Both the position numbers and the translations under genes were made by a program. This document shows, piece after piece, positions 894 through 59,309 of a stretch of DNA of 64,000 bases. A model generated the notes under the pieces. It was not told where the DNA came from. It was given only the letters and a program-made list of their open reading frames with translations, and searched no databases. Position 1 is the stretch's first letter. Each line of letters starts with the position of its first letter. Source of the DNA: Minisyncoccota bacterium (GTDB taxonomy: Bacteria; Patescibacteriota; Minisyncoccia; JAHIHE01; JAGLIN01); NCBI GenBank assembly GCA_023142595.1, contig JAGLJF010000003.1, positions 3,873-67,872 on the forward strand, in the 5' to 3' direction.

Positions 894-2204
894 TTATCCT
901 CCAAGCCTTCTGACTTTTTTCAAAACCTGATATATATCATAACCAAATTTATCAATTGCCAAATCATAAGCGCCGATATAGCTTTTTTCTTCTCCTCCAA
1001 AACCTTTTTTGAATTTTGTAATTCCACGCCAAGTCTCCTTTTCTCCGTCAATTGTAATTCCCCAAAAATCATATTTTTTATATCTTGCATTTTTCGCATC
1101 TTGAATTTGTTTCCATTGCAAAAGATATGGCGCCATTAGATTTCTATGCTCATTAGACGATGCTCCATGAAGATAGATCGTCAAATCCCCAAAACACAAA
1201 ACGATATTAGCTGCAATAATTTTTTCCTCATATTCAGCAAGATATAATTTGGCAATTAAATTATAATTATTAATATATGCGCTGTCATTCTGAACTTGAT
1301 TCAGAATCTTTTTTGTATCGCCACTATTTCTTTTAATATTCCCCATGCCTTGTTTTGCGAATTGAAAATTAGATAAACCATCATCACGAACAGATTCTGA
1401 AATGAATTCAGAATGACAATTTGAATCTGTTTTACCGCAAAAACTCAAGTTTTTCAACATCTCCTGATAATAATTTTTATTATGAGAAATAATTTTATTC
1501 CGCTCTGAAGTTTCTTTCGTTAATTCCCAAAAAAATTCAAATTTTTTTCGAAACTCTTCCTGATTTATATCTCCTGATTTATATCTCCTGATCTGCACTC
1601 CCCTTTTTTCAGCCAATCGAATATTATAACGAGTTTTCTGTTTCATTTCTTTCAATAAATCTTCTTCTGATTTTTCAAGATTTAATATTAAAGTATCTTT
1701 TGGCTGAATTTCAGACGGTGATTTTTTTAAATTAGTAAAATGTTCATAATTCTTATGCTGGCTCCATAGTCCCTTTAGGGCTGTGAAGCCTGTTTGCAAA
1801 AGTCTTGCATTTGGGTTCCACAGCCCTTCGGGACTATGGAACCAGCGAGAAATCGGCGGATCAATTCTCAAAAATATACTTTTTTCTTTTCTGACAATTT
1901 TTTTAATTTCAACAAACAAGAAATCATAAACGCTTGATATTTGAGAATTAACGATTGTAATATTTATCACAGGACCACGCGGACAATATAAATAACTTTT
2001 TCCAAACGGAAGATTATGCTTTATTAAAAGAGCTACAGCCACCAACTTATCTTCATCTTTAACCCCAATTCTAAATATTTTTCTTCCTATAACTTTTTGA
2101 AATTCTCCCCACTGCCAAGACTGCAAAAAACTTTCTGAACTGTTGAAAACTATAAATTTATTCCAGTCCTCTTTTTGATTTTCTCCTATTTCAATTATTT
2201 TCAT
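894..2204 (-). CDS. FemAB-family peptidoglycan interpeptide bridge peptidyltransferase (MurM/FemX-like)
   Basis: Family-like N-terminus (WQW...YCPRGPV) and C-terminal region (FKKGFGGEE). Carries an in-frame palindromic element (see repeat 1761..1843). Confidence 0.55.
   Translation of the reverse strand: MKIIEIGENQKEDWNKFIVFNSSESFLQSWQWGEFQKVIGRKIFRIGVKDEDKLVAVALLIKHNLPFGKSYLYCPRGPVINITIVNSQISSVYDFLFVEIKKIVRKEKSIFLRIDPPISRWFHSPEGLWNPNARLLQTGFTALKGLWSQHKNYEHFTNLKKSPSEIQPKDTLILNLEKSEEDLLKEMKQKTRYNIRLAEKRGVQIRRYKSGDINQEEFRKKFEFFWELTKETSERNKIISHNKNYYQEMLKNLSFCGKTDSNCHSEFISESVRDDGLSNFQFAKQGMGNIKRNSGDTKKILNQVQNDSAYINNYNLIAKLYLAEYEEKIIAANIVLCFGDLTIYLHGASSNEHRNLMAPYLLQWKQIQDAKNARYKKYDFWGITIDGEKETWRGITKFKKGFGGEEKSYIGAYDLAIDKFGYDIYQVLKKVRRLGG
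1761..1843. repeat. ~83-bp compound palindromic element (CCATAGTCCC..GGGCTGTG / CACAGCCC..GGGACTATGG) inserted in-frame in the FemAB gene
   Basis: Two half-sites are reverse complements of each other. Solo half copies occur at 42444-42478 and 42855-42888. The insertion encodes ~WFHSPEGLWNPNARLLQTGFTALKGLWSQ. Confidence 0.7.
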
Positions 2205-3146: not shown

Positions 3147-4211
3147 TTATCTCAATTTCAAATTCGCATCTGCCTTTACGCTTTTCCAATTCTTAATCCC
3201 TTTATTTTTCTCAACATATTTATAAGCCGCAATGGCAATCATCAAAGCATTGTCTGATGTTAATTTTGACGTTGGGAAAGAAAAACCGCAAAGAGGTAAA
3301 TCTGATTTTATCGCTTCGGCTAATACTTTTTGCAATTTTTTATTTGCTGAAACCCCTCCTCCTAAAACAATGTTTTTTACTTTATGTTTTTGTGCCGCTT
3401 TGATGGTTTTAGAAACAAGCACATCAAAAGCCGCCTTCTGAAAAGATGCTACAACGTCTTGTTTATATTGGTCATTATAGAGACGCATAGATGCTGCATC
3501 TCTACAGCTTTGAACCTCATATAAAACCGCAGTTTTCAACCCTGAAAAAGAAAAATTATAATCGCCACTATTCATCATCGGTCGCGGAAATTTTATTTTT
3601 TCTTCATCTCCCTGTTTTGCCATTTTTTCAATAATAGGTCCCCCAGGATAACCGAGTTCCAAAAGCTTGGCAACCTTGTCAAAAGCTTCTCCCACCGCAT
3701 CATCCAAAGTTTCTCCAAGAACTTTATAATTCAAATCCTTTTTCATAAGAATGATTTGAGTGTGTCCACCAGAAACTGTCAGACAAAGAATCGGAAATTC
3801 TGCTTCCCATAATTTATTATTTTTTGCATCAGATTTCTTAAGCCAATTTGCATAAATATGTCCTTCAATGTGATGAATTCCAATTAATGGTTTCCCCAAA
3901 CCATAAGCAAGAGCTTTGGCAGCTCCAACACCAACCATCAAAGCAGGAATCAATCCAGGACCATTCGTCACGGCAACATAATCAATTTTTTTCTTGCTTA
4001 TTTTTGCATTACGAAAAGCTCTTTCCAAAATTGAAGTAATGTTTTTTAAATGCATTCTTGAAGCCAAAGACGGAACAACTCCACCAAATTTACTATGCAT
4101 TTTGACTTGAGAAGAAACTATATTTGCCAAAACCTTAGCACCTCCATTTTTAAATTCAACAATAGCAACCGCTGTTTCATCACAAGAAGTTTCAATCGAC
4201 AAAATAATCAT
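3147..4211 (-). CDS. tsaD: tRNA N6-adenosine threonylcarbamoyltransferase TsaD (Kae1/YgjD family)
   Basis: MIILSIETSCDETAVAIV start. HxxH metal site (GIHHIEGHIY). Full-length family similarity. Confidence 0.85.
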   Translation of the reverse strand: MIILSIETSCDETAVAIVEFKNGGAKVLANIVSSQVKMHSKFGGVVPSLASRMHLKNITSILERAFRNAKISKKKIDYVAVTNGPGLIPALMVGVGAAKALAYGLGKPLIGIHHIEGHIYANWLKKSDAKNNKLWEAEFPILCLTVSGGHTQIILMKKDLNYKVLGETLDDAVGEAFDKVAKLLELGYPGGPIIEKMAKQGDEEKIKFPRPMMNSGDYNFSFSGLKTAVLYEVQSCRDAASMRLYNDQYKQDVVASFQKAAFDVLVSKTIKAAQKHKVKNIVLGGGVSANKKLQKVLAEAIKSDLPLCGFSFPTSKLTSDNALMIAIAAYKYVEKNKGIKNWKSVKADANLKLR

Positions 4212-9835: not shown

Positions 9836-9891
9836 TTTGTATAAAGCTTAACGACATTATATAATGTAATAAACAAATATAATTATAATAA

Positions 9892-11163
9892 ATGAATAAT
9901 AACAAAAAAACAACCTTCCTTTCTCTTGGCGCTGAATCTATAGGAAGATTTGCTGTTTATTCTGACGACAGTGTTTTTGTTTCCGAAAATTTTGGCGATT
10001 TACTGAATGAAAATAATTTCAAAAATTATGAGAAAGCCGTTCTAAAACAAATTAAAATAAAGAAGCCTAATGTGATTTTGACAGATTTGCATCCGCTTTA
10101 TGTTTCAACGGTTTTAGGAGAAGAATTATCAAAAAAACTTCAAATTCCACACATCAAAATTCAACATCATCTTGCCCATGTTTTCTCTGCAGTTGGGGAT
10201 AAATTTTGCCATTCTAACCCTAACAATTGTAATTCTGAGATTAATATTTGTCATCCTGAGCTTGTCGAAGGATTTCAGTCCGTTGAGACTACAAGAGATT
10301 CTTCGACTCCGCTCCGCTCCGCTCAGAATGACAGTAATAATTTTAGACTTGATATAAAATACTCTTTACCAAATACTTTCTACGGCATTGCTTCTGATGG
10401 CACGGGTTTAGGTTTTGATGGGAACATCTGTGGTGGAGAGGTTTTTGAATTTAAAAATACAAAATCTATAAAACAGCCTCTGCACCAAGTTCAAAATAGC
10501 AGTATAAAAAGAATTGGCTCGCTTGAAGAACAAACTATGCTTGGCGGAGATTTAGCAGTCAAAGAACCGGCTCGTATGCTCATTAGCATTCTTTCAAAAT
10601 TTCTGCCGAAAGAAAAAACATATGAAAATGTGGAAAAACATTATTCTAAAAACGAATTTGAACTTCTTTATAATCAACTTCAACAAGATTTCAATTGCCA
10701 AACAACAACAAGCACGGGAAGAATTTTAGATGCTGTTTCAGTTTTGCTTGACTTTGCAAAAAACGAACGAAAATCAAAACATGAAGCGACAAAACTTCTT
10801 GAAGAAAAATCTGCTATTCCGTATAAACTTAATCCAAAAATTACATTCGATAAAGATTATAACAGATATATTTTACAAACAACACCTCTTTTTGAATATT
10901 TATTAAAAAACATCAATAAAGATAAAAAAAGGCTTGCCACAACTGCACAATTATATCTTGCTCAAGGGTTTTTGGAAATTATCAATAAAAATTCAAATAA
11001 TCAAAACAGTAAAATCTTTTTCGCTGGCGGAATAGCGAATAATCAAATTATGTCCTCATATCTGGAAAATAATAATGTTTATACATCAAAAAAAATCCCT
11101 CGTGGAGACGAAGGACTTGCATTCGGTCAAATTATATATTATTTGTCTAACTATATAAATTAA
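9892..11163 (+). CDS. HypF C-terminal (Kae1/YgjD-like carbamoyltransferase) domain protein; lacks the acylphosphatase, Zn-finger and YrdC domains of full HypF
   Basis: LGAE..., DLHPLY and QHHLAHVFSA align with the HypF Kae1-like domain. Convergent with hypE, 7 nt apart. Contains an in-frame MITE (10250..10333). Confidence 0.55.
   Translation: MNNNKKTTFLSLGAESIGRFAVYSDDSVFVSENFGDLLNENNFKNYEKAVLKQIKIKKPNVILTDLHPLYVSTVLGEELSKKLQIPHIKIQHHLAHVFSAVGDKFCHSNPNNCNSEINICHPELVEGFQSVETTRDSSTPLRSAQNDSNNFRLDIKYSLPNTFYGIASDGTGLGFDGNICGGEVFEFKNTKSIKQPLHQVQNSSIKRIGSLEEQTMLGGDLAVKEPARMLISILSKFLPKEKTYENVEKHYSKNEFELLYNQLQQDFNCQTTTSTGRILDAVSVLLDFAKNERKSKHEATKLLEEKSAIPYKLNPKITFDKDYNRYILQTTPLFEYLLKNINKDKKRLATTAQLYLAQGFLEIINKNSNNQNSKIFFAGGIANNQIMSSYLENNNVYTSKKIPRGDEGLAFGQIIYYLSNYIN
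10250..10333. repeat. Family-3 MITE (gtcatcctgagcttgtcgaaggat...ctcagaatgaca) inserted in-frame within the hypF-Cterm CDS
   Basis: Same termini as the tandem copies at 58877-59096. Translated as ...ICHPELVEGFQSVETTRDSSTPLRSAQND... Confidence 0.7.
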
Positions 11164-11170
11164 TAAATCC

Positions 11171-12172
11171 CTAACAAATCCTCGGGATCAATTTTCCTTG
11201 TGGCATCTCAATCAGGCGTAAACCACCGATTGAAGTTTTCAAAAATACTCCTTTTCCTTTTTCTACTTCCCCAATAATTTTTGCTTCAGAATTAAACTTC
11301 TGAAGTTTTTTGACAACTTTGTCCGCATCTCTGGAGCTCACGCTCGCAATAAATCTTCCCTCAGACGGAAAGGCAAAAAGATTAATTCCTAAAAGCTCGC
11401 TAATTGCCACTACATCTTTTTTAAACGGTAGATTTTTTTCATCAAGAACAATTTTCACTTTTGATTTTTCAGCAATTTCATTCAAATTTTCTCCCAAACC
11501 TCCTCTCGTTGGATCTTTACAAACATGCAAAAATTTAGCCACACTTTGTACTTCCTTAACAAGTGGCTGACAATCGCTTTTTAATTTTGTTTTATAATTA
11601 AACCTCTCGCTCAAAATCACAGCACCGTGCTCTCCTAAATTTCCTGAAGCAATAATTTTGTCTCCTGGCTTTGCCTCACTATTTGAAATTATTTTTTTTG
11701 CCAGACCGACTCCGGAAGTTGTAATTTCAATTTTATCAATTTTTCCTTTTTCAGTTACTTTTGTATCCCCTGTCACAACTGGAACTTTTGCTTCACGCGA
11801 AACCTTATCAATTGATTTGATGATTTTTTCCAAATCTTTTGCTGGAAATCCTTCTTCGATCACAAAAGAAAGTGAAATTCCAATCGGCACTGCGCCCATT
11901 ACAGAAACATCATTAATCGTCCCACACATCGCAATTTTTCCAATATCACCACCTTTAAAAAATAAAGGGTCAATTATAAAAGCATCGGTCGTGAAAGCTA
12001 ATCTTTGATTTCCCAAATCATAAATCGCCGCATCATCTCCTGTATTTTTCCACTTCCCTGTATATTTCATAATTTTCCGCAAATCCTTGAAAAATTCCCA
12101 AGAAGCTTTTCCACCCGAACCAAGCTCAAGAGAAATTGATGAATTTTTATTGAATGATTTTGATGTTGACAT
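11171..12172 (-). CDS. hypE: Hydrogenase maturation protein HypE (AIR-synthase-related carbamoyl dehydratase)
   Basis: ISLELGSGGKA N-terminus. MCGTINDVSVMGA motif. Diagnostic C-terminal PRIC motif. Confidence 0.8.
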   Translation of the reverse strand: MSTSKSFNKNSSISLELGSGGKASWEFFKDLRKIMKYTGKWKNTGDDAAIYDLGNQRLAFTTDAFIIDPLFFKGGDIGKIAMCGTINDVSVMGAVPIGISLSFVIEEGFPAKDLEKIIKSIDKVSREAKVPVVTGDTKVTEKGKIDKIEITTSGVGLAKKIISNSEAKPGDKIIASGNLGEHGAVILSERFNYKTKLKSDCQPLVKEVQSVAKFLHVCKDPTRGGLGENLNEIAEKSKVKIVLDEKNLPFKKDVVAISELLGINLFAFPSEGRFIASVSSRDADKVVKKLQKFNSEAKIIGEVEKGKGVFLKTSIGGLRLIEMPQGKLIPRIC

Positions 12173-12550: not shown

Positions 12551-12945
12551 ATTTTGACAGATAAATCTGTCTCTGAAGATATCAACTTATCAACATAGGT
12601 TGCTCTGTCTTCTTTTTTTATCCCAAATATTTTAAGGAATCTTGATTATCTAAAAACCTATAACGATAAAGAACAGAATTCCTATTTCCTGTCATTTTGT
12701 GGGAGTAATAACGACGAGAAATCTGTGAATAGTATTAGTCTAAAATTAATTAGTTTTCAAACCCCCTAGCCCCCTTATCAGGGGGAACGAGACTTAATTG
12801 GTTTATAGATCTCTAAATTACTTCGCGCATTTCAATAATTCACAGCAATCAACTTCAAAGCGTCGCTCTTGACAAGAATCTCAATTCGTGTTAGGATTAG
12901 GTGTAAAAGTCTTTTGTAAGGCTTTTTTAATTATTAATTTAATAT

Positions 12946-13524: not shown

Positions 13525-13651
13525 AATTATATAAATTTACAAAAAACTTTAAGAAGCTAATAAATTTTTCTCTTATAATTTATTTTTTGCTTTAATTCCT
13601 GGATTCCCTTCTTCAAGGGAATGACAAAAATAAACAGCCTTAACGGGTTGT

Positions 13652-23057: not shown

Positions 23058-23166
23058 TGTCATCCTGAACTTGTTTCAGGATCTTTCGTAATATTAGTAT
23101 CATTCTAATAATCTCACAAAACTAGAAGTTGCATACGACAGATTCTAAACTAAATTCAGAATGACA
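23058..23166. mobile_element. Family-1 MITE, short variant (TIRs TGTCATCCTGAA...TTCAGAATGACA, each a hairpin)
   Basis: Terminal inverted repeats and internal hairpins shared with copies at 24594, 31881, 42692, 44157, 44984, 50067. Confidence 0.7.
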
Positions 23167-24593: not shown

Positions 24594-24703
24594 TGTCATC
24601 CTGAACTTGTTTCAGGATCTTTTGTTTTATGGGCAATGTTTCTAATAATTTCACAAAACTAGAAATTGCAATCGACAGATTCTGAAATAAATTCAGAATG
24701 ACA
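24594..24703. mobile_element. Family-1 MITE, short variant
   Basis: TGTCATCCTGAACTTGTTTCAGGATC ... GATTCTGAAATAAATTCAGAATGACA. Confidence 0.7.
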
Positions 24704-24991: not shown

Positions 24992-27028
24992 ATGAATAAA
25001 ATCTTAGAAAACTTAAACGACAAACAAAAAGAGGCCGTGACTACAATTGAGGGGCCTGTTTTGGTTATTGCTGGTCCTGGTTCTGGAAAAACAAGAGTGC
25101 TCACGCATCGCGTGGTTTATGCTATTGCTCAAAAAAATATTCCCAAAGAGAGTATTCTAGCAGTCACTTTCACAAACAAGGCTGCCAAAGAAATGAAAAA
25201 CAGAATCGTGTCTTTGCTGGGAAGTATGAATGCGTTAGGTTCTGACAAAAAAGCATTTCACAAAGCAATCAATTCATATTCAACTTCTTTTGCAACAGAC
25301 TTTCCGACAATCTCAACTTTTCACAGTCTCTGCGTGAAAATTTTGCGAGACGAAGCTGAACACATCGGTTACAAAAGAGATTTTGTCATTTTTGATAGCG
25401 ATGACCAAAAATCCTTGATCAAAAAAATAATGAAAGAATTACAAATTGATACAGAAAGCTTTAATCCACGAACGATTTTGGCAGAAATTTCCAATGCCAA
25501 GAATGAACTTCGAAATCCAAAAACATATGAGGAGATGATTGACGGATATAAAGAGGAAACCGTAAGTAAAATTTATAATATATACCAAAAGAGACTCAAA
25601 GAAAATAACTCGATGGATTTTGATGATTTGATTATGCAAACTAGCATTTTGTTTTTCACAAATCCTAAAATTCTGGAAAAATATCAAGACAAGTTCAGAT
25701 ATATTATGGTTGATGAATATCAAGACACAAACCATGCTCAATATAAGCTGGTTAATCTTTTGAGTAAAAAACACAAAAATATTTTTGTAGTTGGTGATGA
25801 TTGGCAGAGTATTTATAAATGGCGTGGTGCTGATATCAAAAATATTTTGGAGTTTGAAAAAAGTTATGCTGGCGCAAAAACAATTCTTTTAGAACAAAAT
25901 TATCGCTCTACGCAAAAAATTCTTGATGCTTCGTATAGCATTATCGCCAAAAATGTAAATCGAAAAGAAAAAAGTCTTTGGAGCAAAAAAGAGTCTGGTT
26001 TTCCAATTACAGTTTATGAAGCAGCTAATGAAAAAGGAGAAGCAGAGTTTATTATTTCAGAAATTGCTAAAGCTAATACAAAAGACAACTTAAGGCTTAA
26101 TGAAATCGCGATTTTGTACAGAACGAACGCTCAATCTCGTTCGATCGAAGAAGCCTTTTTGCAATATAATGTTCCATATCGAATTATAGGTGGAATCAAA
26201 TTTTATATGAGAAAGGAAATCAAAGACATTATAGCCTACTTCAGGCTCATTCAAAATCCAACAGATTTAATGAGTTTTGAAAGAGTGGTCAATACTCCAA
26301 AAAGAGGACTTGGCAAATCAACATATGAAAAAATCATCTCGGAAAGTCGCAATCAAGGAAAAGGTATTGTAGAAATTATTTCGAATTACAACAAGGGAGA
26401 TATTTCTGCGAAAAGATTAGAAAGTTTGGTTGGCTTTGCAAAGATAATTGAGAATTGCAAAGAAAAAACAAAAACAATGAAAATCAAAGAGGTTTTGGAA
26501 TATCTTTTGACAAATATAAACTATGAATTATATATCAAAGACGGAACAGATGAAGGAGAATCGAGATGGGAAAATGTAAAAGAACTTTTCACGGCTGTTG
26601 AAAAATATGACGATTTTACAGCCGAAAAATCATTGAATCTTTTTTTGGAAGAAGTTGCCTTGGCGACCGATTTGGATAAAGTAGACGAAAAACAAGACGC
26701 GGTCACTTTAATGACATTGCATTCTGCAAAAGGGTTGGAATATGATACGGTTTTTATTATTGGATTGGAAGAGGGACTACTTCCTCATGCGATGAGTTTG
26801 AGCGATGAGTTTGAAATGGAAGAAGAAAGAAGATTGTGCTATGTTGGATTGACTCGAGCAAAAAACCGAGCTCATCTTGTTTTTGCCCGTGTACGAAGAA
26901 TTTTTGGCTCCACTCAATCAAACTATCCTTCTCGATTTATATCTGATATTCCCGATCATCTTGTTGATATGCAAAATCAGGGTTATAGTTATTTAGATAG
27001 TGATGAAAGTGAAGCAAATTACTTGTAA
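24992..27028 (+). CDS. pcrA: ATP-dependent DNA helicase PcrA/UvrD/Rep family
   Basis: Walker A AGPGSGKTRVL. UvrD helicase motifs throughout. 678 aa. Confidence 0.85.
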   Translation: MNKILENLNDKQKEAVTTIEGPVLVIAGPGSGKTRVLTHRVVYAIAQKNIPKESILAVTFTNKAAKEMKNRIVSLLGSMNALGSDKKAFHKAINSYSTSFATDFPTISTFHSLCVKILRDEAEHIGYKRDFVIFDSDDQKSLIKKIMKELQIDTESFNPRTILAEISNAKNELRNPKTYEEMIDGYKEETVSKIYNIYQKRLKENNSMDFDDLIMQTSILFFTNPKILEKYQDKFRYIMVDEYQDTNHAQYKLVNLLSKKHKNIFVVGDDWQSIYKWRGADIKNILEFEKSYAGAKTILLEQNYRSTQKILDASYSIIAKNVNRKEKSLWSKKESGFPITVYEAANEKGEAEFIISEIAKANTKDNLRLNEIAILYRTNAQSRSIEEAFLQYNVPYRIIGGIKFYMRKEIKDIIAYFRLIQNPTDLMSFERVVNTPKRGLGKSTYEKIISESRNQGKGIVEIISNYNKGDISAKRLESLVGFAKIIENCKEKTKTMKIKEVLEYLLTNINYELYIKDGTDEGESRWENVKELFTAVEKYDDFTAEKSLNLFLEEVALATDLDKVDEKQDAVTLMTLHSAKGLEYDTVFIIGLEEGLLPHAMSLSDEFEMEEERRLCYVGLTRAKNRAHLVFARVRRIFGSTQSNYPSRFISDIPDHLVDMQNQGYSYLDSDESEANYL

Positions 27029-27699: not shown

Positions 27700-28536
27700 A
27701 TGCTTTCAAAAGAAGAAATTCAAAAAATATTCAAAACTCCAAACATGGCAATTCTCAAAAGCTTGGGACAGAATTTTTTGATTGACGAAACTGTTTTGAA
27801 AAATATAATTACTTGTTCAGATTTAAATAAAGATGGCGTTGTAATTGAGATTGGTCCAGGACTTGGAACTTTGACTGAAGAGCTTTCAAAAAAATGTAAA
27901 AAAGTTATTGCCATCGAAAAGGACAATGAGTTTGCGCAAATGCTTGAAGGAAAATTTGAAAATGTGGAAGTGATTAATGGTGATATTCTGCAAATGAATA
28001 TTAATGAGCTGGTTCATAAATATTCTCAAAACGGAAAATTCAAACTTGTTTCCAACATCCCCTATTATATTACCTCTCCAATTATAAAATTATTTCTAGA
28101 AAATGCCATCCAACCAGAAGTCATTGTTTTGTTGATGCAAAAAGAAGTGGCTCAAAGAATTTGTGAAAAACCAGGAAAACTGAGTATGATTGCGCTAGGC
28201 GTTCAAGTTTATGGAGAACCTGAAATTGTCGGTTTCGTTAAAAATACTTCTTTCTATCCAGCGCCAAAAGTTGATTCGGCAATTTTGAAAATAAAAAATA
28301 TAAAACGAGAATTTTCTGACGAATATTATCAAAAGTTATTTCGAATTATGAAAATTGGTTTTTCATCCAAAAGAAAAAAATTATTGAACAATCTTTCAGC
28401 AGGTTTGCAAATCGAAAAAAAGGAAGCAGAAAAATTTCTTAATCAGACAGAGATCGATTTGAAAGTCCGCGCGCAAGAATTGAGCATTGAACAATGGGAA
28501 AAATTAATGGAAGTTTACACGACCGTAGAGACGTAG
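27700..28536 (+). CDS. rsmA: 16S rRNA (adenine1518/1519-N6)-dimethyltransferase RsmA/KsgA
   Basis: LGQNFLID motif, SAM-binding VIEIGPGLGTLT, NIPYYI motif. The stop codon lies inside a REP-B hairpin. Confidence 0.85.
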   Translation: MLSKEEIQKIFKTPNMAILKSLGQNFLIDETVLKNIITCSDLNKDGVVIEIGPGLGTLTEELSKKCKKVIAIEKDNEFAQMLEGKFENVEVINGDILQMNINELVHKYSQNGKFKLVSNIPYYITSPIIKLFLENAIQPEVIVLLMQKEVAQRICEKPGKLSMIALGVQVYGEPEIVGFVKNTSFYPAPKVDSAILKIKNIKREFSDEYYQKLFRIMKIGFSSKRKKLLNNLSAGLQIEKKEAEKFLNQTEIDLKVRAQELSIEQWEKLMEVYTTVET

Positions 28537-28553
28537 CAATGCTGCGTCTCTAC
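28525..28553. repeat. REP hairpin family B (GTAGAGACGyAGCAATGCTGCGTCTCTAC), copy 1
   Basis: Near-perfect 29-bp palindrome. Three copies around/in the second RAYT. Confidence 0.75.
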
Positions 28554-28585: not shown

Positions 28586-29203
28586 ATGTCTCGGCTATAT
28601 AAGAATAAATTCAAAACTGAATCAACGAGATTGAAAAAATGGGACTATTCACAGAATGGTTTTTATTTTGTGACGATTTGCACGAATAATCATCAGTTGT
28701 TTTTTGGTGATGTAAAAAAATCAGAATCAGAACATTGTCCAATTTTTGAAATGAAAAAATCGCCCATTGGCAAAATCGCCGAAAAATATTGGTTAGAAAT
28801 TCCAAAACATTTTTCAAATGTAAAATTAGATGTATTTGTAATTATGCCAAACCATTTACACGGGGTAATTGAAATTTGTGATGATATTGTGATTGATAAA
28901 AATAAACCGTGCAAACATGTAGAGACGCAGCAATGCTGCGTCTCTACAACAACAAATAATGAATCAAAAACATTTTATAGATTAATTCCAAAATCACTGC
29001 CTGTTATTATTCGCTCATTTAAATCAATTTGTACAAAAACAATAAATCAGAAATTTGATGATAGAAATTTTTCCTGGCAATCGAAATACTATGATCATAT
29101 TATTAGAGATGAAAAATCATTAGACGAAATCAGAAAATATATTATTGATAATCCCGCAAAATGGGATTTGGATAAGAATGTTGTTGAGAATTTTTATAAA
29201 TAG
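28586..29203 (+). mobile_element. Second REP-associated tyrosine transposase (RAYT, IS200-like) carrying its own REP hairpin in-frame
   Basis: HuH motif MPNHLHGVIEI. Catalytic tyrosine region WQSKYYDHIIRDEKSLDEIRKYIIDNP. REP-B copies at 28525, 28919 (inside ORF) and 29241. Confidence 0.65.
28919..28947. repeat. REP hairpin family B, copy 2, located in-frame inside the RAYT ORF (encodes HVETQQCCVSTT)
   Basis: Same palindrome. The ORF remains open through it. Confidence 0.7.
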
Positions 29204-29240: not shown

Positions 29241-29269
29241 GTAGAGACGTAGCAATGCTGCGCCTCTAC
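29241..29269. repeat. REP hairpin family B, copy 3
   Basis: GTAGAGACGTAGCAATGCTGCGCCTCTAC. Confidence 0.7.
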
Positions 29270-31880: not shown

Positions 31881-32055
31881 TGTCATTCTGAACTTGATTC
31901 AGGATCTTCGTTAGGTTAGATTTTGACTTATACTATCTACACGATACTATTGTATAAAAAAATACAACTATGTTTTTTGTAATAATCTGGTTAGCGATTT
32001 ATAGGCTTGCTTTAATATATAAGAATAAAGATTCTGAACTAAATTCAGAATGACA
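31881..32055. mobile_element. Family-1 MITE, full-length (~175 bp)
   Basis: TIRs TGTCATTCTGAA / TTCAGAATGACA. Internal sequence about 80% identical to copies at 44157 and 44984. Confidence 0.75.
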
Positions 32056-38517: not shown

Positions 38518-39272
38518 ACCTGAACTCTTATTATTTGTCATTCTGAATTCATTTCAGAATCTTAGTTAAATTAGATTTGAATCTATACTTTTTTACATAA
38601 TACTTTTATTTATAAAAAACATATATATTCTATAAATATCATACAGGTGCTAGTATATTCATCTGTCATCTCAGAATTTATTCCGAAACGATAGTGCAGG
38701 AATAAATGTCTGAGATCCAGTTTGTTTCGTTTATTAGAATCATTGTATAAACCGTTTTTGCATCATTAATTATTTTCTTTTCTTATAAAACCTTACAAAA
38801 TATATTATTTATTGAGACTTACTGGATTCCAGATAAATTTTTCTTTTGACTCTTAATTGTTAGATTGTCCAGCGTTGTATATACTTTTATAATTACCATT
38901 AGTATCAATTGTCATCCTCAGCTTGACTGAGGATCCAGAATAGACTGAGATAAATTTTAATTTAGGCTTGATACAGCCAAAAGATAATAATCCTAGATTC
39001 CCGCAGGAGTTTATGCTGAATTAATTTCAGTGCGGGAATGACAAATAAGTTTAATGTAATGTATATAACTATTTTTAAAAAGTATAGGAAGCGCTGAAAA
39101 ATCTTACATATTAATAGTAAAATTTTCTGAAATGACAATATTTTGCCACTAAATTAATAAACATTTATACTATAAATGGTTTATTAATTCACTGACGTAA
39201 TTTTATCAACAAATTAAGTACCATTTATAAAAATAGCAACCCAAAGATATTATATAAAAGCAAAAGAGCAAT

Positions 39273-40256: not shown

Positions 40257-40470
40257 TAATTTGAAAATTATAATTTTATTTTCTACATAATTTATTTTGG
40301 TTTATTATTACTGTAGATTAGTATATAATAAAAATAAGTATGTTTAAAATAAAAGAGATTCTTATGACCAATTGTCATTCTGAGAGAACGCGATTGTCAT
40401 TCTGAGTGAAACGAAGAATCTCAAAATAAAGTTTATCAATAAATTTCAATAAACCATAATTTTTAAAAAT

Positions 40471-42243: not shown

Positions 42244-42691
42244 TCCTTAAAAATATTTTTTGTTTATCATCGTTTCTTGATTCACCTCCATCTGTTTGGG
42301 TGAACTTTTTTAACTATCTTTTTTTCATTGTTAGTCTCGAAATAACAAATATATTATATTGCGATTCAACACAAAATTAATCTGCTTACGGGATTCTTCA
42401 TTTCTCTCAAAATGACGCATAAGTATATTGCTAAAATTTTGCAATCTGGGATCCACAGCCCTACGGGACTATGGAACCCTCGAAATAATATTATAAAAGA
42501 TAATTACAAAAATTCACCCAAAAGAATAATCAAATTGCTGGAAAACAAAAGATAAACTTATGGCTATTTTGTTTTTTTAAAAGAACATTTTCAAAATCAA
42601 CATAAGTTGACCCTCTCTCCTTCTCTACTCCAAAACTAGCACAAATATTTGTTTTTGTCAAGGTGGCTGGATGTGGACAGATTTTAGAGAT

Positions 42692-42803: not shown

Positions 42804-42970
42804 TATTTGTCATACTAAGAAGGAACGACAAAGTATACTGATAAAGTTTTGCAATCCGGGCTCCACAGCCCTACAGGACTATGGAGCCCTCAAACTAAAT
42901 TCAGAATAACAAAAATAAGACAACAAAAAACTGCCTCGCTTTTGCAAGACAGTTTTTCAAAAATTAATTT

Positions 42971-44038: not shown

Positions 44039-44156
44039 TTGTTTATATTGGTAAATAAAGATATCGTCCTAAACAATGTTATATTTCATTTTCGAAAAAA
44101 TTATTTGTCATCCTTGTAGATGTTACCTAATTCGTTGACAGAATATGCTCAAGCTC

Positions 44157-44335
44157 TGTCATCCTGAACTTGTTTCAGGATCTTTGTTAAATTAGGTTTT
44201 GATTTGTATCATATACACAATACTATTGTATATATAGAATAAACACAATATATTTTCTTAATGATACAGTTAGTGATTTATAGACTAGCTTTAATATAGG
44301 AAAACGACAGATTCTGAACTAAATTCAGAATGACA
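44157..44335. mobile_element. Family-1 MITE, full-length (~179 bp)
   Basis: TIRs and internal sequence shared with 31881 and 44984. Confidence 0.75.
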
Positions 44336-44526
44336 AAAATATTGGTTTCATTTTCGAAAAGATTATTTGTCATTCTTGTAGATATTACCTAATTCGTTGA
44401 TAGAATATGTTCAAGCTCTGTCATCCTGAACTTGTTTCAAGATCTATCGTACTTTGCAATAAATGCTTCTATAAATCGTAAAATATTTTAGTCGGATTAT
44501 TTATTTCATCTAATATTTTTCAAGAA

Positions 44527-44811
44527 TTAATCTATATTCAAGTCAGCAAATCCAGGATTTTTACTTTTTATTAAGTTTATTTTCCACGCTCTGTGCCAAT
44601 TTTTAAGTTGTTTTTCTCTTTTAATTGCAGAAACAACATCACTTGTCTGTTCAAAATAAACTAATTTTTTTAAATTATATTTTTCAGAAAAACCTTTTAC
44701 TAGTTTATTTTTATGTTCATAAACTCTTCTTTTTAAATCATTTGTCACACCAATATACAGGGCTGTATCAGTAAAATTCATCATAATATACACATAATAC
44801 GATTTTGACAT
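44527..44811 (-). CDS. GIY-YIG nuclease-domain small protein
   Basis: YYVYIMMNFTDTALYIGVTNDLKRRVYEHK is a GIY-YIG motif. 94 aa. Sits in a nest of MITE copies. Confidence 0.7.
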   Translation of the reverse strand: MSKSYYVYIMMNFTDTALYIGVTNDLKRRVYEHKNKLVKGFSEKYNLKKLVYFEQTSDVVSAIKREKQLKNWHRAWKINLIKSKNPGFADLNID

Positions 44812-44983
44812 TTATTTGTTTTAAAAACATTAAAATCATAACCAACGACAGATTCTGAACTAAATTCAGAATGACAAAAAGTTTGTTTCATTTTCGAAAA
44901 GATTATTTGTCATTCTTAGGTTCTAAACTCAACCACACCTGTCATCCTGAACTAACCCAATGTCATCCTGAGCCAAACCCCTG

Positions 44984-45145
44984 TGTCATCCTGAACTTGT
45001 TTCAGGATCTTTAGTCAAATTAGGTTTTAATCTATATTTATATACACAACACTATCATATACAAAATGAACAAATACGGTTAGTGATTTATGGACTGGCT
45101 TCAATAGAACAGAACGACAGATTCTGAACTAAATTCAGAATGACA
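44984..45145. mobile_element. Family-1 MITE, full-length, preceded by two solo left-end TIR fragments (44940-44983)
   Basis: TGTCATCCTGAACTTGTTTCAGGATC...GATTCTGAACTAAATTCAGAATGACA. Confidence 0.75.
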
Positions 45146-45337
45146 ACTATTGTCGTTTTGTCTTTTGAAAATTTACATTAAATATTATGTAACTCAAGTA
45201 TACATTAATTTTCAATATAAGTGAAATTTTTGTTTATTGATTGACTGTTTCATCTAATATGATATTATTCTAATAGAAAATGAGTAACAATTCAGTAACC
45301 TAACCTTCAGACTTTTTGTTTGGAGTATGGTTTAAAT

Positions 45338-45442
45338 CCACTCGCGTAGAAACGGTCTTCTGATCGGTACTACGCGAGTGGTCTTTACCTGAAAGGGTAT
45401 TGGGCAATCCGAAAGGGTCGCCGCCGACGGAAGACCTTTTTT
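45338..45442 (+). ncRNA. Candidate structured RNA / cis-regulatory leader upstream of the secreted nuclease gene
   Basis: Perfect 12-bp stem (CCACTCGCGTAG...CTACGCGAGTGG). Its loop (GGTCTTC) is complementary to a 3' GAAGACC followed by a T-run, giving pseudoknot/terminator potential. Locally GC-rich in an AT-rich genome. Confidence 0.3.
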
Positions 45443-48401: not shown

Positions 48402-48507
48402 TGTCATCTCGAAATAAGAGGAACGATTGAGAGATCTGAGAACTAAATAAATTTCACTATATAATATCATTCACAGATTTCTCACCCTATCGGGATTCGA
48501 AATGACA
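48402..48507. mobile_element. Family-2 MITE (TIRs TGTCATCTCGAAAT...ATTTCGAATC-like/GAAATGACA)
   Basis: Shares termini and internal blocks with the copy at 52691-52795. A partial copy lies at ~12700-12750. Confidence 0.65.
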
Positions 48508-49858: not shown

Positions 49859-50066
49859 GGAGAATGATTTTAATATCTAAATATCTTAATAAATAGGTCT
49901 GCTGATTTACTTCTGGTTCCCCCTGATAAGGGGGTTGGGGGGTTTGAAAAATGGCTAAGAAAAACTGAATTATTTTTTTAAGATTGTGAAATTTTATCTC
50001 TTTTTATAAAAATTAGATGAAAATCAGCAGCCACTAGATATAACAAAATTAATATATTATCAGATA

Positions 50067-57323: not shown

Positions 57324-57397
57324 GGGCGATTAGCTCAGTTGGCTAGAGCACCTCGTTTACACCGAGGGGGTCGGGGGTTCGAATCCCTCATCGCCCA
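57324..57397 (+). tRNA. tRNA-Val (anticodon TAC)
   Basis: GGGCGATTAGCTCAGTTGG... Anticodon loop TTTACAC. T-loop GGTTCGAATCC. Confidence 0.8.
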
Positions 57398-57479
57398 CCC
57401 CTTGTCATTCTGAATTTTATTCAGAATATTCTTAATAAAACTTATATTTGTTGTTTATATATAATTTTAGCCGAGGTAG

Positions 57480-57764: not shown

Positions 57765-58829
57765 TTATAAATATTTAGCTTCAATACCACAAGCTCCTTC
57801 AGAAGAAACCATGCAGGCACCAATTGGATTCTCAGAAGTGCATTTTTTGTTAAACAGCTTGCAATCTTTTGGCTGCTTGAGCCCACGAAGAATGGCCCCA
57901 CAAATACATCCAGTGCTCTCAAGAGATTCTTCGACAAGTTCAGAATGACAAGATAAAATATTTTTATATTTTACCTTCGCATCATACTTTGAATATTTTT
58001 CTCTAATTTTTAAACCTGAATTAGGAATATTTCCAAGTCCTCGCCAAAATGCATCTCCATTTTCAAAAACTTCATCAACTAATTTTCTGGCGACAGGATT
58101 TCCTTCTGGACGAACACATCTGGTATATTCATTTTCAACTTCTTCTCTTCTCTCTGCAATCTGTTTCAAAAGCATATAAATTCCAAGCAAAACATCTTCT
58201 CCGCTAAAACCAGTAATAACCTGAGAAAGTTTGAATTTTTGATATAGTTCTGTTCCAATGATAGCTGAAACATGTCCAGGATTCAAGAAGCCGTCAATTT
58301 TCAAAGTTGGAGTATCAACCAATACTTGCATCGCTGGAATAAAAAGTTTGTGAGATGAATAAACAGTCAAGCCTTTTTTAATTGCATCTGCCGTCATTGG
58401 AGTTGTTGTTTCAAATCCCAGTCCAAAAAAAACTAAATCCTTTTTTTCTTTTTGTAATTTTAAAGCATCTTCAGTTGAATAAACTTCATTAACATCAGCA
58501 CCAAGTTCGCGCGCTTTATTGAGAGATAATTTTTGTTTTTGTTTATCAGCTTTTAAAACTAAATTTCCTGGCACTCTGAGAACATCTCCATAACAAGCAA
58601 TTGGAACATCATTTAAAGCTAATTTAATTATTGCATCAACATCTTTTTGGTCTGTCACACAAACTGGACACCCAGGTCCCGAAAGAAGCTTCACATTTTT
58701 CGGCAAAATCTTCTTGATACCGTTTTTTGCAACAGCTTCAGTATGCGTCCCACAAAGCTCCATAATCACAACATCGCGATTAATTTCTTTTGCAAGAATT
58801 TCAATTTTTTTTATTATATTTAATGTCAT
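57765..58829 (-). CDS. hypD: Hydrogenase maturation factor HypD
   Basis: Diagnostic motifs CGTHTE (CGxH), GPGCPVCV, C-terminal CxxC...CxxC. Contains a 28-bp MITE right-end fragment in-frame (57923..57950). Confidence 0.8.
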   Translation of the reverse strand: MTLNIIKKIEILAKEINRDVVIMELCGTHTEAVAKNGIKKILPKNVKLLSGPGCPVCVTDQKDVDAIIKLALNDVPIACYGDVLRVPGNLVLKADKQKQKLSLNKARELGADVNEVYSTEDALKLQKEKKDLVFFGLGFETTTPMTADAIKKGLTVYSSHKLFIPAMQVLVDTPTLKIDGFLNPGHVSAIIGTELYQKFKLSQVITGFSGEDVLLGIYMLLKQIAERREEVENEYTRCVRPEGNPVARKLVDEVFENGDAFWRGLGNIPNSGLKIREKYSKYDAKVKYKNILSCHSELVEESLESTGCICGAILRGLKQPKDCKLFNKKCTSENPIGACMVSSEGACGIEAKYL

Positions 58830-58876
58830 TTTTTAATAACCTAATTCGATTTAAACCGCTAACAAACACAAATGAT

Positions 58877-59096
58877 TGTCATCCTGAGTGAAACGAAGGA
58901 TCCCGTTATTAGTTTCATGAGGTGTTTTATAACGACTTGATGTACATAATCTCGGGATTCTTTACTACTATTCAGAATAACTGGATACACTATCATTCTG
59001 GGCTTGTCGAAGGATTCCACTGTTAGTTTTGTATAATATTTTATGACGATTTGATGTGCATAGTCGCGAGATTCTTCACTACCGTTCAGAATGACA
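58877..59096. mobile_element. Two tandem family-3 MITEs (~105 bp each; GTCATyCTGAGyG...GAAGGATyCC ... GGGATTCTT...TTCAGAATGACA) between hypD and hypC
   Basis: Copy 1 58877-58982, copy 2 58992-59096. Same family as the in-frame copy in hypF-Cterm and the partial copies at ~40370-40430. Confidence 0.7.
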
Positions 59097-59099
59097 ATA

Positions 59100-59309
59100 T
59101 TATTTCCCCTCCAACAAATCAGAAATTTCCTTTGCATCTTTGCTTGTTAATTTTTGAATTGCGAAACCAGCATGCACAATCGCATAATCCCCTTTTTTCA
59201 CATCAACTAAAGAAACATTCACCTCTCGTTCAATCCCGTCAAAATCAACCAACGCAACGTTGGTTTTTTTATCAACCGATTTTATTCTCCCCGGAATTGC
59301 TAAACACAT
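59100..59309 (-). CDS. hypC: Hydrogenase maturation factor HypC (HupF/HybG family)
   Basis: Starts MCLAIPGRI (canonical MC(L/I)(A/G)(I/V)P). 69 aa. Confidence 0.75.
   Translation of the reverse strand: MCLAIPGRIKSVDKKTNVALVDFDGIEREVNVSLVDVKKGDYAIVHAGFAIQKLTSKDAKEISDLLEGK

Follow-up and report, generated by a model that had tools for sequence, protein, structure and literature searches.

Rickettsia palindromic elements (RPEs) were reportedly first described by Ogata et al. in 2000. Here we compare these and other described repeats with a small hairpin element that is read in frame in the hydrogenase-maturation gene hypF, and with a related module in hypD, of a Minisyncoccota bacterium (Patescibacteriota; assembly GCA_023142595.1, contig JAGLJF010000003.1, positions 3,873 to 67,872). 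The whole stretch of 64,000 nt that was analyzed is referred to as the window. RPE-1 and its relatives have been summarised in two studies (PMC3733652; PMC1779305), and RPE-4 and RPE-6 belong, together with dRS3 of Neisseria, to the CGTC-REP superfamily of repetitive extragenic palindromes (REPs) (Di Nocera, De Gregorio and Rocco, 2013; PMC3733652). CGTC-REPs carry a tag that is often TGTC, a stem of 8-9 bp starting with AT, a loop of 4-5 nt and a tail of 3 nt, and occur mostly as inverted dimers; intragenic copies have been reported and no dedicated transposase is known (PMC3733652). The dRS3-containing NTS motif (CGTCATTCCCGCGMAVGCGGGAATCYRG) is bound, only as single-stranded DNA (ssDNA), by SsnA, which cuts a few bases upstream of it. 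SsnA of N. meningitidis is a single-domain GIY-YIG nuclease of 94 aa in which the residues Y6, Y17, and E64 have been mutated, and ssn genes are flanked by NTS and 'SRM' hairpins (Chenal et al., 2025; PMC11893778).

Our main conclusion, to which we assign a probability of roughly 0.78, is that the hypF and hypD segments are copies of a resident family of small TGTC-tagged hairpin repeats, carried in frame in genes that are functional. The hypF element (Table 1) is an 85-nt inverted pair (10249-10333) inside the HypF open reading frame (ORF, 9892-11163, plus strand); it reads TGTCATCCTGAGC...GCTCAGAATGACA and is read through in frame to give the peptide CHPELVEGFQSVETTRDSSTPLRSAQND, in agreement with the complete element of ~84 bp that a first-pass annotation of the window had placed here. 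It falls exactly in the 62-residue gap (residues 103-164) between the Pfam domains HypF_C (residues 5-102) and HypF_C_2 (residues 165-413) of a protein that is 100% identical to one deposited under a Candidatus Pacebacteria metagenome-assembled genome. The left module has the sequence TGTC-ATCCT-GAGCTTGTCGA-AGGAT-TTC, and the whole element folds as a single long hairpin (-15 kcal/mol, z -2.5, DNA parameters). Directly 5' of it are two truncated left ends, which start at 10207 and 10228 (21-nt spacing); hypF of the sister genome (L081/L083) has one such 21-nt unit fewer, and similar stutters of left ends are present at 44940/44961/44984 and 40373/40395.

The hypD module (57923-57950, minus strand, 28 nt) reads TGTCATTCTGAACTTGTCGAAGAATCTC; its translation, SCHSELVEESLES, uses the relative frame of the hypF element and lies ~14 residues upstream of Cys308, the first ligand of the CX14CX6CX16C Fe-S motif. 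It has an exact 16-mer and an 11-mer in common with the right module of hypF, and it folds no better than shuffled sequence (z +1.5). Two further copies occupy the 270-nt spacer between hypC and hypD. The first-pass annotation had proposed one repeat family translated in both genes in the same relative frame, with two copies separating hypC from hypD, and these proposals hold. Two details had to be corrected: the termini of the hypF element, described as identical to those of the spacer copies, are alike at only ~25 of 29 positions, and ~40 nt in the centre of the spacer copies are missing from the hypF copy; the hypD piece, described as a right-end fragment, is one complete end module that adds no length. 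From the sequence, the inserts are expected to yield the junction-spanning peptides ...INICHPELVEGFQ... and ...NILSCHSELVEESLES....

Table 1. Repeat modules, repeat pairs and associated genes in the window
Feature	Position	Strand	Basis
Stand-alone Kae1-like HypF, 423 aa, intact	9892..11163	+	Pfam and NCBIfam matches
Two truncated 21-nt left-end copies (TGCCATTCTAAC..., TGTAATTCTGAG...), translated CHSNPNN CNSEINI	10207..10248	+	
hypF left module: TGTC tag, ATCCT/AGGAT stem, 11-nt loop, TTC tail	10249..10276	+	
hypF element spacer, 18 nt	10277..10294	+	
hypF right module, inverted: TGTC tag, ATTCT/AGAAT stem, loop with (GGAGC)3	10295..10333	-	
hypD, 354 aa, intact	57765..58829	-	Pfam E 8e-124, TIGR00075
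Single complete end module in hypD, translated CHSELVEES	57923..57950	-	pattern and shared k-mers
Intergenic inverted pair, copy 1, hypC-hypD spacer	58877..58982	+	
Intergenic inverted pair, copy 2, hypC-hypD spacer	58991..59096	+	
hypC, 69 aa	59100..59309	-	
hypE, 333 aa	11171..12172	-	Pfam and NCBIfam matches
Third in-frame inverted pair, family A, in FemAB-like ORF 894-2204 (-); CHSEFISES...VQND	1283..1418	-	
Family-A end modules bracketing 94-aa GIY-YIG gene; candidate enzyme-bearing unit	44419..44876	-	
Gene-less family-A inverted pair beside ssn unit	44157..44335	+	
Gene-less family-A inverted pair after two truncated left ends (44940, 44961)	44984..45145	+	
Inverted pairs	1283-1418, 10249-10333, 23058-23166, 24594-24703, 31881-32055, 44157-44335 and others		

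The modules follow one plan, consisting of an unpaired TGTC tag, a stem starting with AT, a loop, the return stem and a C, and two inverted modules form a hairpin element of 85-180 nt. In family A the module is TGTC-ATTCTGAA-CTTG-TTCAGAAT-CT, with loops of 3-5 nt and the tail CTK. A structure-aware scan of the window detected 31 TGTC-AT-stem modules, mostly with stems of 8-9 bp and loops of 3-5 nt, compared to 3.9 in shuffled sequences, and a 13-mer terminus matched 21 times (0.7 expected). A 26-nt family pattern was found with 0 mismatches in hypF, in hypD, in the hypC-hypD spacer and at 40395, with 0 occurrences expected in shuffles. The pairs fold into hairpins with z -2.5 to -3.5. All modules begin with TGTC, with CGTC variants at 42407 and in the hypD gene of the sister.

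This architecture resembles the CGTC-REPs in the unpaired 4-nt tag and the stem starting with AT, in family A also in stem (8-9 bp) and loop (3-5 nt) length and the short tail, and in the predominance of inverted pairs, which can fold into a larger hairpin. Both have copies within conserved genes, coding for 20-30 or more residues, and both show different repeats at approximately the same site of orthologs, in recB of Xanthomonas (PMC3733652) and in HypD and HypF here. The systems differ in that Patescibacteria are not among the five phyla listed and no dedicated enzyme was found in that study (PMC3733652), whereas the window has a GIY-YIG gene between modules; the inter-module spacers of the window are also longer (18-130 nt). 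As RPE-4 and RPE-6 are members of the superfamily, the comparison with RPEs may be one of kinship rather than analogy.

That the HypF segment is an insertion and not ancestral sequence follows from an alignment with 120 HypF-C homologs. The stretch from HHxAHxFSAxGD to FYGIAxDGTG usually counts ~13 residues and is 46 residues longer in the window. A window-type element is present at this site in 8/121 sequences, and elements of other subfamilies in 7. The element is shared with the sister (P0122, 84% identical), P0123, P0125-P0128 and locus L003, in a carrier clade with identities of 61-84%, and is absent from P0124, P0129, P0131 and others, the empty site in P0131 being GDC-ILNTKYSILNTF. At the DNA level, the ends of the element decay progressively in the relatives (decayed ends in L003 and L001), and copies that have lost the hairpin ends (P0123, P0125, P0127, P0128) have kept the frame. 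This is an old insertion that is vertically inherited and slowly decaying. In a neighbour-joining tree of HypF, which is rough and only indicative, non-carriers are intermixed with carriers, pointing to repeated losses, repeated gains, or both. In a second HypF clade (P0138, P0144, P0150, P0154, P0168, P0190) the same site is filled in every member, by different subfamilies giving CHSERS...ARNDK, ...AQDDK and CHPEFISGS...RFRNKFGMT, the last of which belongs to family A of the window.

The situation in HypD is different. The 13-residue segment derived from the module is found in the window, the sister, P0003, P0004 and P0016, and orthologs from P0005 on and from P0071 on are among those without it. 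In close relatives the loop is unrelated and also 13 residues long (SLNTKYQILNTNS); in distant ones it reads KVDFSKSRKP, and the window segment is 2 residues longer than the loop of distant relatives. Because the loop has the same length but an unrelated sequence in relatives, it has been replaced and nothing was added; on this alignment, one module took the place of a hypervariable loop ahead of the Fe-S cysteines. The in-frame insertion that the first-pass annotation had assumed for both genes is therefore retained for HypF and becomes a replacement for HypD. Complete pairs are present at the site of the window's module in 11 other HypD orthologs; those of L166 and L167 (106 and 103 nt) have identical junctions, GGC/TGTCAT...ATGACA/TAAA. 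A metagenome scan for HypD relatives returned distant homologs only, as the seed motifs are universal, and was uninformative on the loop.

Some further observations were made on these loops. When they lack a TGTC element, both often read LNTKYxILNT, IQNSKFKIQNS, ENCKLKIEN or TTNYKLQT (HypD P0005-P0070; HypF-C P0131, P0135, P0148 and others; L003 10450-10490), all of them products of tandemly repeated heptamers such as (AATACTW)n, so that two unrelated proteins show the same low-complexity DNA at their insertion hot spots. Other fixed insert sites follow residues 98 and 200 of HypD and residues 238 and 318 of HypF-C (window numbering) and hold inserts of other families, CHCEE...ATKQSQ, VIARS...ARNDK, SPLPLGEGQG and SPPDKGGWGV; the last matches a window repeat at 12754-12797 and 49907-49950. 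An insert of 13-15 residues after window residue 196 (NLKIEALRQSFDYAQ, ...LRQNQND), which may be another decayed module, is present in the sister (L081 10540-10637), P0123 and P0125 and absent from the window. The model of the window HypF has low confidence at residues 192-201, the region of this extra insert.

Turnover of the repeats is also visible outside HypF and HypD. The spacer between hypC and hypD holds two pairs in the window, one in the sister (a single copy of another subfamily), three in L164 and one in L166; in L167 it contains no unit and the two genes are 8 nt apart. The family-A pair in the FemAB-like gene (1283-1418) is absent from the sister genome, which indicates that turnover is recent. 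The FemAB-like protein is 436 aa long in the window vs. 357 aa in the sister, with flanks of ~94% nucleotide identity, and the difference consists of two in-frame insertions, +165 nt with the family-A pair and +72 nt. The latter (in window 1725-1850, absent from the sister) belongs to an unrelated repeat family (...GGTTCCACAGCCCTTCGGGACTATGGAACC...), also in frame, that is present as well at 42421-42488 and 42831-42898.

The peptide CH[PS]E that HypF and HypD have in common is, judging from the reading frames, a by-product of the TGTCAT tag. In TGTCATYCTGA the stop codon TGA occurs in one of the three frames, which leaves two that can be read: one gives CH[PS]E, and the other gives the VIA[RS] of the TGTCATTGCGA subfamily, found in inserts at other insertion sites of HypD and HypF-C orthologs. 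From tag to tag, the four in-frame pairs measured span 85, 136, 106, and 103 nt; all these lengths equal 1 mod 3, and all four pairs end in ...QND. Ortholog inserts ending in ...GMT or ...RMT, with lengths of 0 mod 3, survive as well, so the regularity reflects the position of stop codons and not the mechanism of insertion. A 2-bp duplication as the source of the 1 mod 3 rule was rejected on the same ground.

The same loops are occupied repeatedly in orthologs, and the inserts adjoin metal-binding motifs, that of HypF next to HHxAH and that of HypD next to the first Fe-S cysteine. Both facts would suit a co-opted role, in which the inserts supply Cys/His ligands near the Fe-S cluster of HypD or the metal site of HypF, or form hairpins with a regulatory role in the mRNA. 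The right half of the hypF element, 100% identical to that of the sister when the 5' part of the gene has only 68-88% identity, could be taken the same way. We consider co-option improbable. The Cys of CHSE is replaced by Arg in the sister and by Gly in P0003; insert Cys/His as metal ligands were rejected for this reason, the Cys not being conserved even in the sister. Peptides at one site differ wholly between lineages, the same repeats are also found in the FemAB-like gene and in several other loops, and the hypD module, as mentioned above, folds no better than shuffled sequence. AlphaFold2 models, used for per-residue confidence only, assign the HypF insert (residues 110-148) a predicted local distance difference test score (pLDDT) below 50, with a mean of 82.7 for the protein and values above 88 over most of the fold. 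The insert is thus modelled as a protruding disordered loop. In HypD (mean pLDDT 86.1) the module residues are a moderately confident linker, with values of 85 falling to 59.

Identity along hypF switches at the element: it is 92-97% from the right module onward, and dS relative to the sister drops from 0.95 upstream of the element to 0.18 from the right module onward (window 9890-10450, L081). The element may mark a recombination junction, judging from this single sequence comparison, similar to what has been proposed for dRS3/NTS in Neisseria.

A candidate enzyme for the repeat family is encoded in the window itself. The ORF 44527-44811 encodes a protein of 94 aa with a GIY-YIG domain (PF01541, E 7.8e-16) as its sole domain; it is flanked by modules at 44419-44443 and 44852-44876 and lies amid a cluster of gene-less pairs. 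Its residues Tyr6, Tyr19, and Glu66 correspond to Y6, Y17, and E64 of SsnA. The gene is bracketed on both sides in the window and in the Patescibacteria loci L165 (7422-7824), L168 and L178, and in L183, a fourth such locus, it has a clear left module and a degenerate right side. The unit of L165 has modules of the hypF type and is located in the hypC-hypD spacer between two gene-less pairs, the position where the window holds its two gene-less pairs. Length, domain content and the three corresponding residues agree with SsnA, and further likenesses to the NTS/SRM system are the flanking of the gene on both sides by [C/T]GTCAT-stem-loop-stem-ATC hairpins, the motif itself (NTS CGTCATTCCCGCG..GCGGGAATC vs. 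window TGTCATTCTGAACTTGTTTCAGAATC), the gene-less copies (hundreds), and the flanking of variable gene islands by repeats. The description of NTS/SRM differs in that translated in-frame copies are not treated (PMC11893778). By analogy, we regard the window protein as a candidate Ssn-like nuclease, with putative membership of cd10448 and putative cleavage of ssDNA, and single-stranded TGTCATTCTGAACTTGTTTCAGAATCT-type sequence as its candidate target.

The 4.4-kb segment 44038-48509 around this gene is bounded by clusters of TGTC modules (44084-45175 and 48402-48507) and contains the ssn cluster, a LOOT RNA (45297-45422), an ORF for an SNase/Excalibur nuclease and two unknown ORFs. The sister has 185 nt without modules in its place (L083 18106-18291), which makes the segment a variable island flanked by repeats.

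The first-pass annotation had called the elements MITEs, miniature transposable elements with inverted repeats. Classical MITEs are deletion derivatives of an insertion sequence (IS) of the DDE type, mobilised in trans by its transposase, and they generate target-site duplications. Bacterial MITEs are likewise small, non-autonomous inverted-repeat elements that can extend or fuse ORFs (PMC10969869; PMC3184786), and the terminal inverted repeats with TG at the start and CA at the end, the length of 85-180 nt and the many copies fit this label, as would a 62-aa rve_3 fragment at the edge of the contig of the relative L164. A MITE origin is nevertheless quite unlikely: no target-site duplication was visible by inspection at the element borders read, neither the window ORFs scanned nor the annotations of the sister genome revealed a DDE transposase, and the only gene between matching ends, at five loci, is that of the 94-aa GIY-YIG nuclease. 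In addition, the behaviour of single modules and of tandem truncated ends is that of REPs and not of MITEs. The label is imprecise.

The elements also resemble REPINs, in which inverted pairs of short tagged hairpins multiply as a unit, and their RAYT enzymes, with one small enzyme gene between its own repeats and no target-site duplication (PMC3116915; PMC2817692). They differ in the tag, which is TGTC and not GTAG, and in the enzyme, which is GIY-YIG and not HUH-Y1. A RAYT-related sequence is present in the window: positions 28586-29203 (plus strand) match the C-terminal half of a RAYT (NF047646, E 3.6e-16, covering 71-140 of the 146 profile positions), and REPs of the GTAG type (GTAGAGACGYAGCAATGCTGCGTCTCTAC) lie on either side of this sequence and within it, at 28525-28553, 28919-28947 and 29241-29269, with a further one at 3476-3505. 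This is a second REP system, without relation to the TGTC family, and is probably a remnant. It was rejected as mobiliser of the hyp elements because its flanking repeats are of the unrelated GTAG type.

For the TGTC repeat family we propose the following. Copies would be spread, replaced and deleted either by the Ssn-like nuclease (44527-44811) or by recombination and repair of the host at the hairpins. In a very gene-dense genome many copies would land in genes, where selection would keep only those copies that are free of stops, preserve the frame and are located in permissive surface loops. Recurrent use of the same loops could then result from this selection filter combined with the overwriting of an occupied site by recombination between copies. 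That no target-site duplication was seen and that the event in the FemAB-like gene is unclean fit copying by repair or recombination better than cut-and-paste. A more far-reaching combination of ideas is tentative and, taken as a whole, doubtful: the module-ssn-module units of 0.40-0.46 kb would be autonomous mobile elements, the smallest known, moved by the GIY-YIG enzyme via ssDNA; the gene-less pairs would provide the long-sought explanation for the spread of CGTC-type REPs, including RPE-4 and RPE-6 of Rickettsia; and the system would be active now in Patescibacteria, re-entering and overwriting the same loops and marking recombination breakpoints within genes.

Several results weigh against the interpretation of the segments as translated copies of a resident, Ssn-associated repeat family. 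The subfamily in hypF, hypD and the spacer differs from the CGTC-REPs in having stems of 5 bp (ATCCT/AGGAT) and loops of 11-22 nt, outside the ranges of that superfamily. The published SRM pattern HGTCWYN(0-2)YYVSBRHN(0-5)WNVSBRGN(0-2)RNCYNB has 0 matches in the window, because it requires G+C-rich stem positions and the stems of the window are AT-rich; the window modules do have the tag, a stem opening with AT and a C following the palindrome, and the assignment to the Ssn type consequently rests on architecture. A PDB sequence search with the window GIY-YIG protein gave no match and NCBIfam only sub-threshold matches, and not even the literature offers a known mechanism of transposition for Ssn or its motifs. 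The insertion in the FemAB-like gene is not a clean tag-to-tag event, as the sister also differs in ~57 nt of the flanks. Translation of the inserts is deduced and not observed, and the 5 differences (4 non-synonymous) in 84 nt of the element core between window and sister are too small a sample to indicate neutrality or constraint.

The first-pass annotation had left open whether the hyp genes are decaying or tolerate the element in frame in the manner of RPEs. Decay, with the repeat insertions as part of it, could be suspected from the split of the hyp cluster (hypE/F at 10-12 kb, hypC/D at 58-59 kb, contiguous in L164 and L165), from the uncoupling of hypC and hypD by 270 nt and from the absence of the N-terminal domains of HypF. 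The data make this very unlikely. All four ORFs are intact, and the ratio of non-synonymous to synonymous substitutions (dN/dS) relative to the sister is 0.10 for hypD, 0.035 for hypE, 0.09 for hypC and 0.30 for hypF (dS range 0.2-0.65). HypD has the motifs CGTH, GPGCPVC, GFETT and PGHVS and the cysteines Cys308/323/330/347, so that the suggested check of its catalytic cysteines came out positive, and HypF has H92/H93/H96, D169-G172 and D406; all of these are invariant across the alignments. HypF with the C-terminal part only is a conserved architecture in hundreds of homologs of Patescibacteria and DPANN, and the insertion persists in orthologs down to ~61% identity. Given purifying selection and the retention of all invariant residues, the hyp genes are, as far as their sequences tell, still functional and not decaying.

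The alternative of tolerance in the style of RPEs was the right one. In HypF and in the FemAB-like gene an in-frame insert, orthologs without it and an intact ORF are found together, and in HypF the insert is, according to the model, a surface loop off the folded core (pLDDT below 50). The elements share with RPE-1 that palindromic repeats are in frame in conserved genes of a reduced genome and are tolerated and inherited among orthologs. RPE-1 differs in being longer (~100-150 nt), unrelated in sequence and hosted by an intracellular alphaproteobacterium, and the turnover of subfamilies at one site and the candidate nuclease are found here.

With regard to the organization of the hyp genes, hypF/hypE (9892-12172) and hypD/hypC (57765-59309) are separated by ~46 kb in the window, and L164 and L165 have a contiguous hypC-hypD-hypE-hypF cluster with spacers filled with repeats. 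A solo family-A module with a perfect 9-bp stem (57403-57427) is located 6 nt 3' of a tRNA gene (57324-57397), in a cluster of four tRNA genes adjoining hypD.

Because the long hairpin of the hypF element might also indicate an intron- or intein-like sequence that is removed from the mRNA or protein, leaving mature proteins without the inserts, this possibility was considered; we give it very little credence. None of the four measured tag-to-tag lengths (85, 103, 106 and 136 nt) is a multiple of three, an Rfam scan at gathering thresholds detected tRNAs and a LOOT RNA only and no match at the elements, and stop-free frames, which would be needless if the inserts were excised, are the rule. The decayed hypF copies without hairpin potential keep the frame, which argues for translation rather than removal at the RNA level; the inserts are thus probably translated as unstructured loop extensions. 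Finally, the hypD segment adds no length and is common to the closest orthologs (P0001-P0004, P0016), as would be expected if CH[PS]ELVE were ancestral protein sequence resembling the repeat by chance, but this is ruled out for practical purposes by the ortholog alignments that the first-pass annotation had called for, in which orthologs without the segments exist, loops of distant orthologs are unrelated and complete elements occupy the same site in 11 orthologs, and by the 26-nt pattern and the exact 16-mer and 11-mer.

In-frame REP and RPE copies and the association of Ssn with its motifs are both already published. New with respect to the literature searched are Patescibacteria as host phylum for such repeats, the recurrent filling of two defined loops, in HypD and HypF-C, by elements of different subfamilies, the polymorphism between sister genomes inside coding sequence, and an ssn unit at a site that holds gene-less copies in relatives; nothing specific was retrieved when the literature was searched for MITEs or palindromic repeats of the candidate phyla radiation. 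Our interpretation of the segments as repeat copies implies that translated hairpin repeats are not peculiar to Rickettsia and are common in ultra-small, gene-dense Patescibacteria. The lengths of HypD homologs (339-486 aa) and HypF-C homologs (360-511 aa) vary largely owing to such inserts, which add to protein length, give rise to spurious 'hypothetical' ORFs and can lead annotation and structure prediction astray. For hydrogenase biology, two loops beside metal-binding motifs tolerate 13-50 extra residues. The in-frame differences from the sister, and the ssn gene where relatives hold gene-less copies, could make the mobilisation of CGTC-REPs testable.

Two further hairpin observations concern single modules. 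A TGTC hairpin with a 9-bp stem and 1 mismatch (25384-25412) lies inside a UvrD-like ORF (24992-27028); genes for UvrD/REP helicases are a class reported to host intragenic REPs, and with ~4 modules expected by chance in the window, this one could be a chance occurrence. The modules at 13603-13626 and 38997-39043, both on the minus strand, have ATTCCC...GGGAAT stems (TGTCATTCCCTTGAAGAAGGGAATCC) and satisfy the dRS3 consensus of Neisseria, ATTCCC-N8-GGGAAT.

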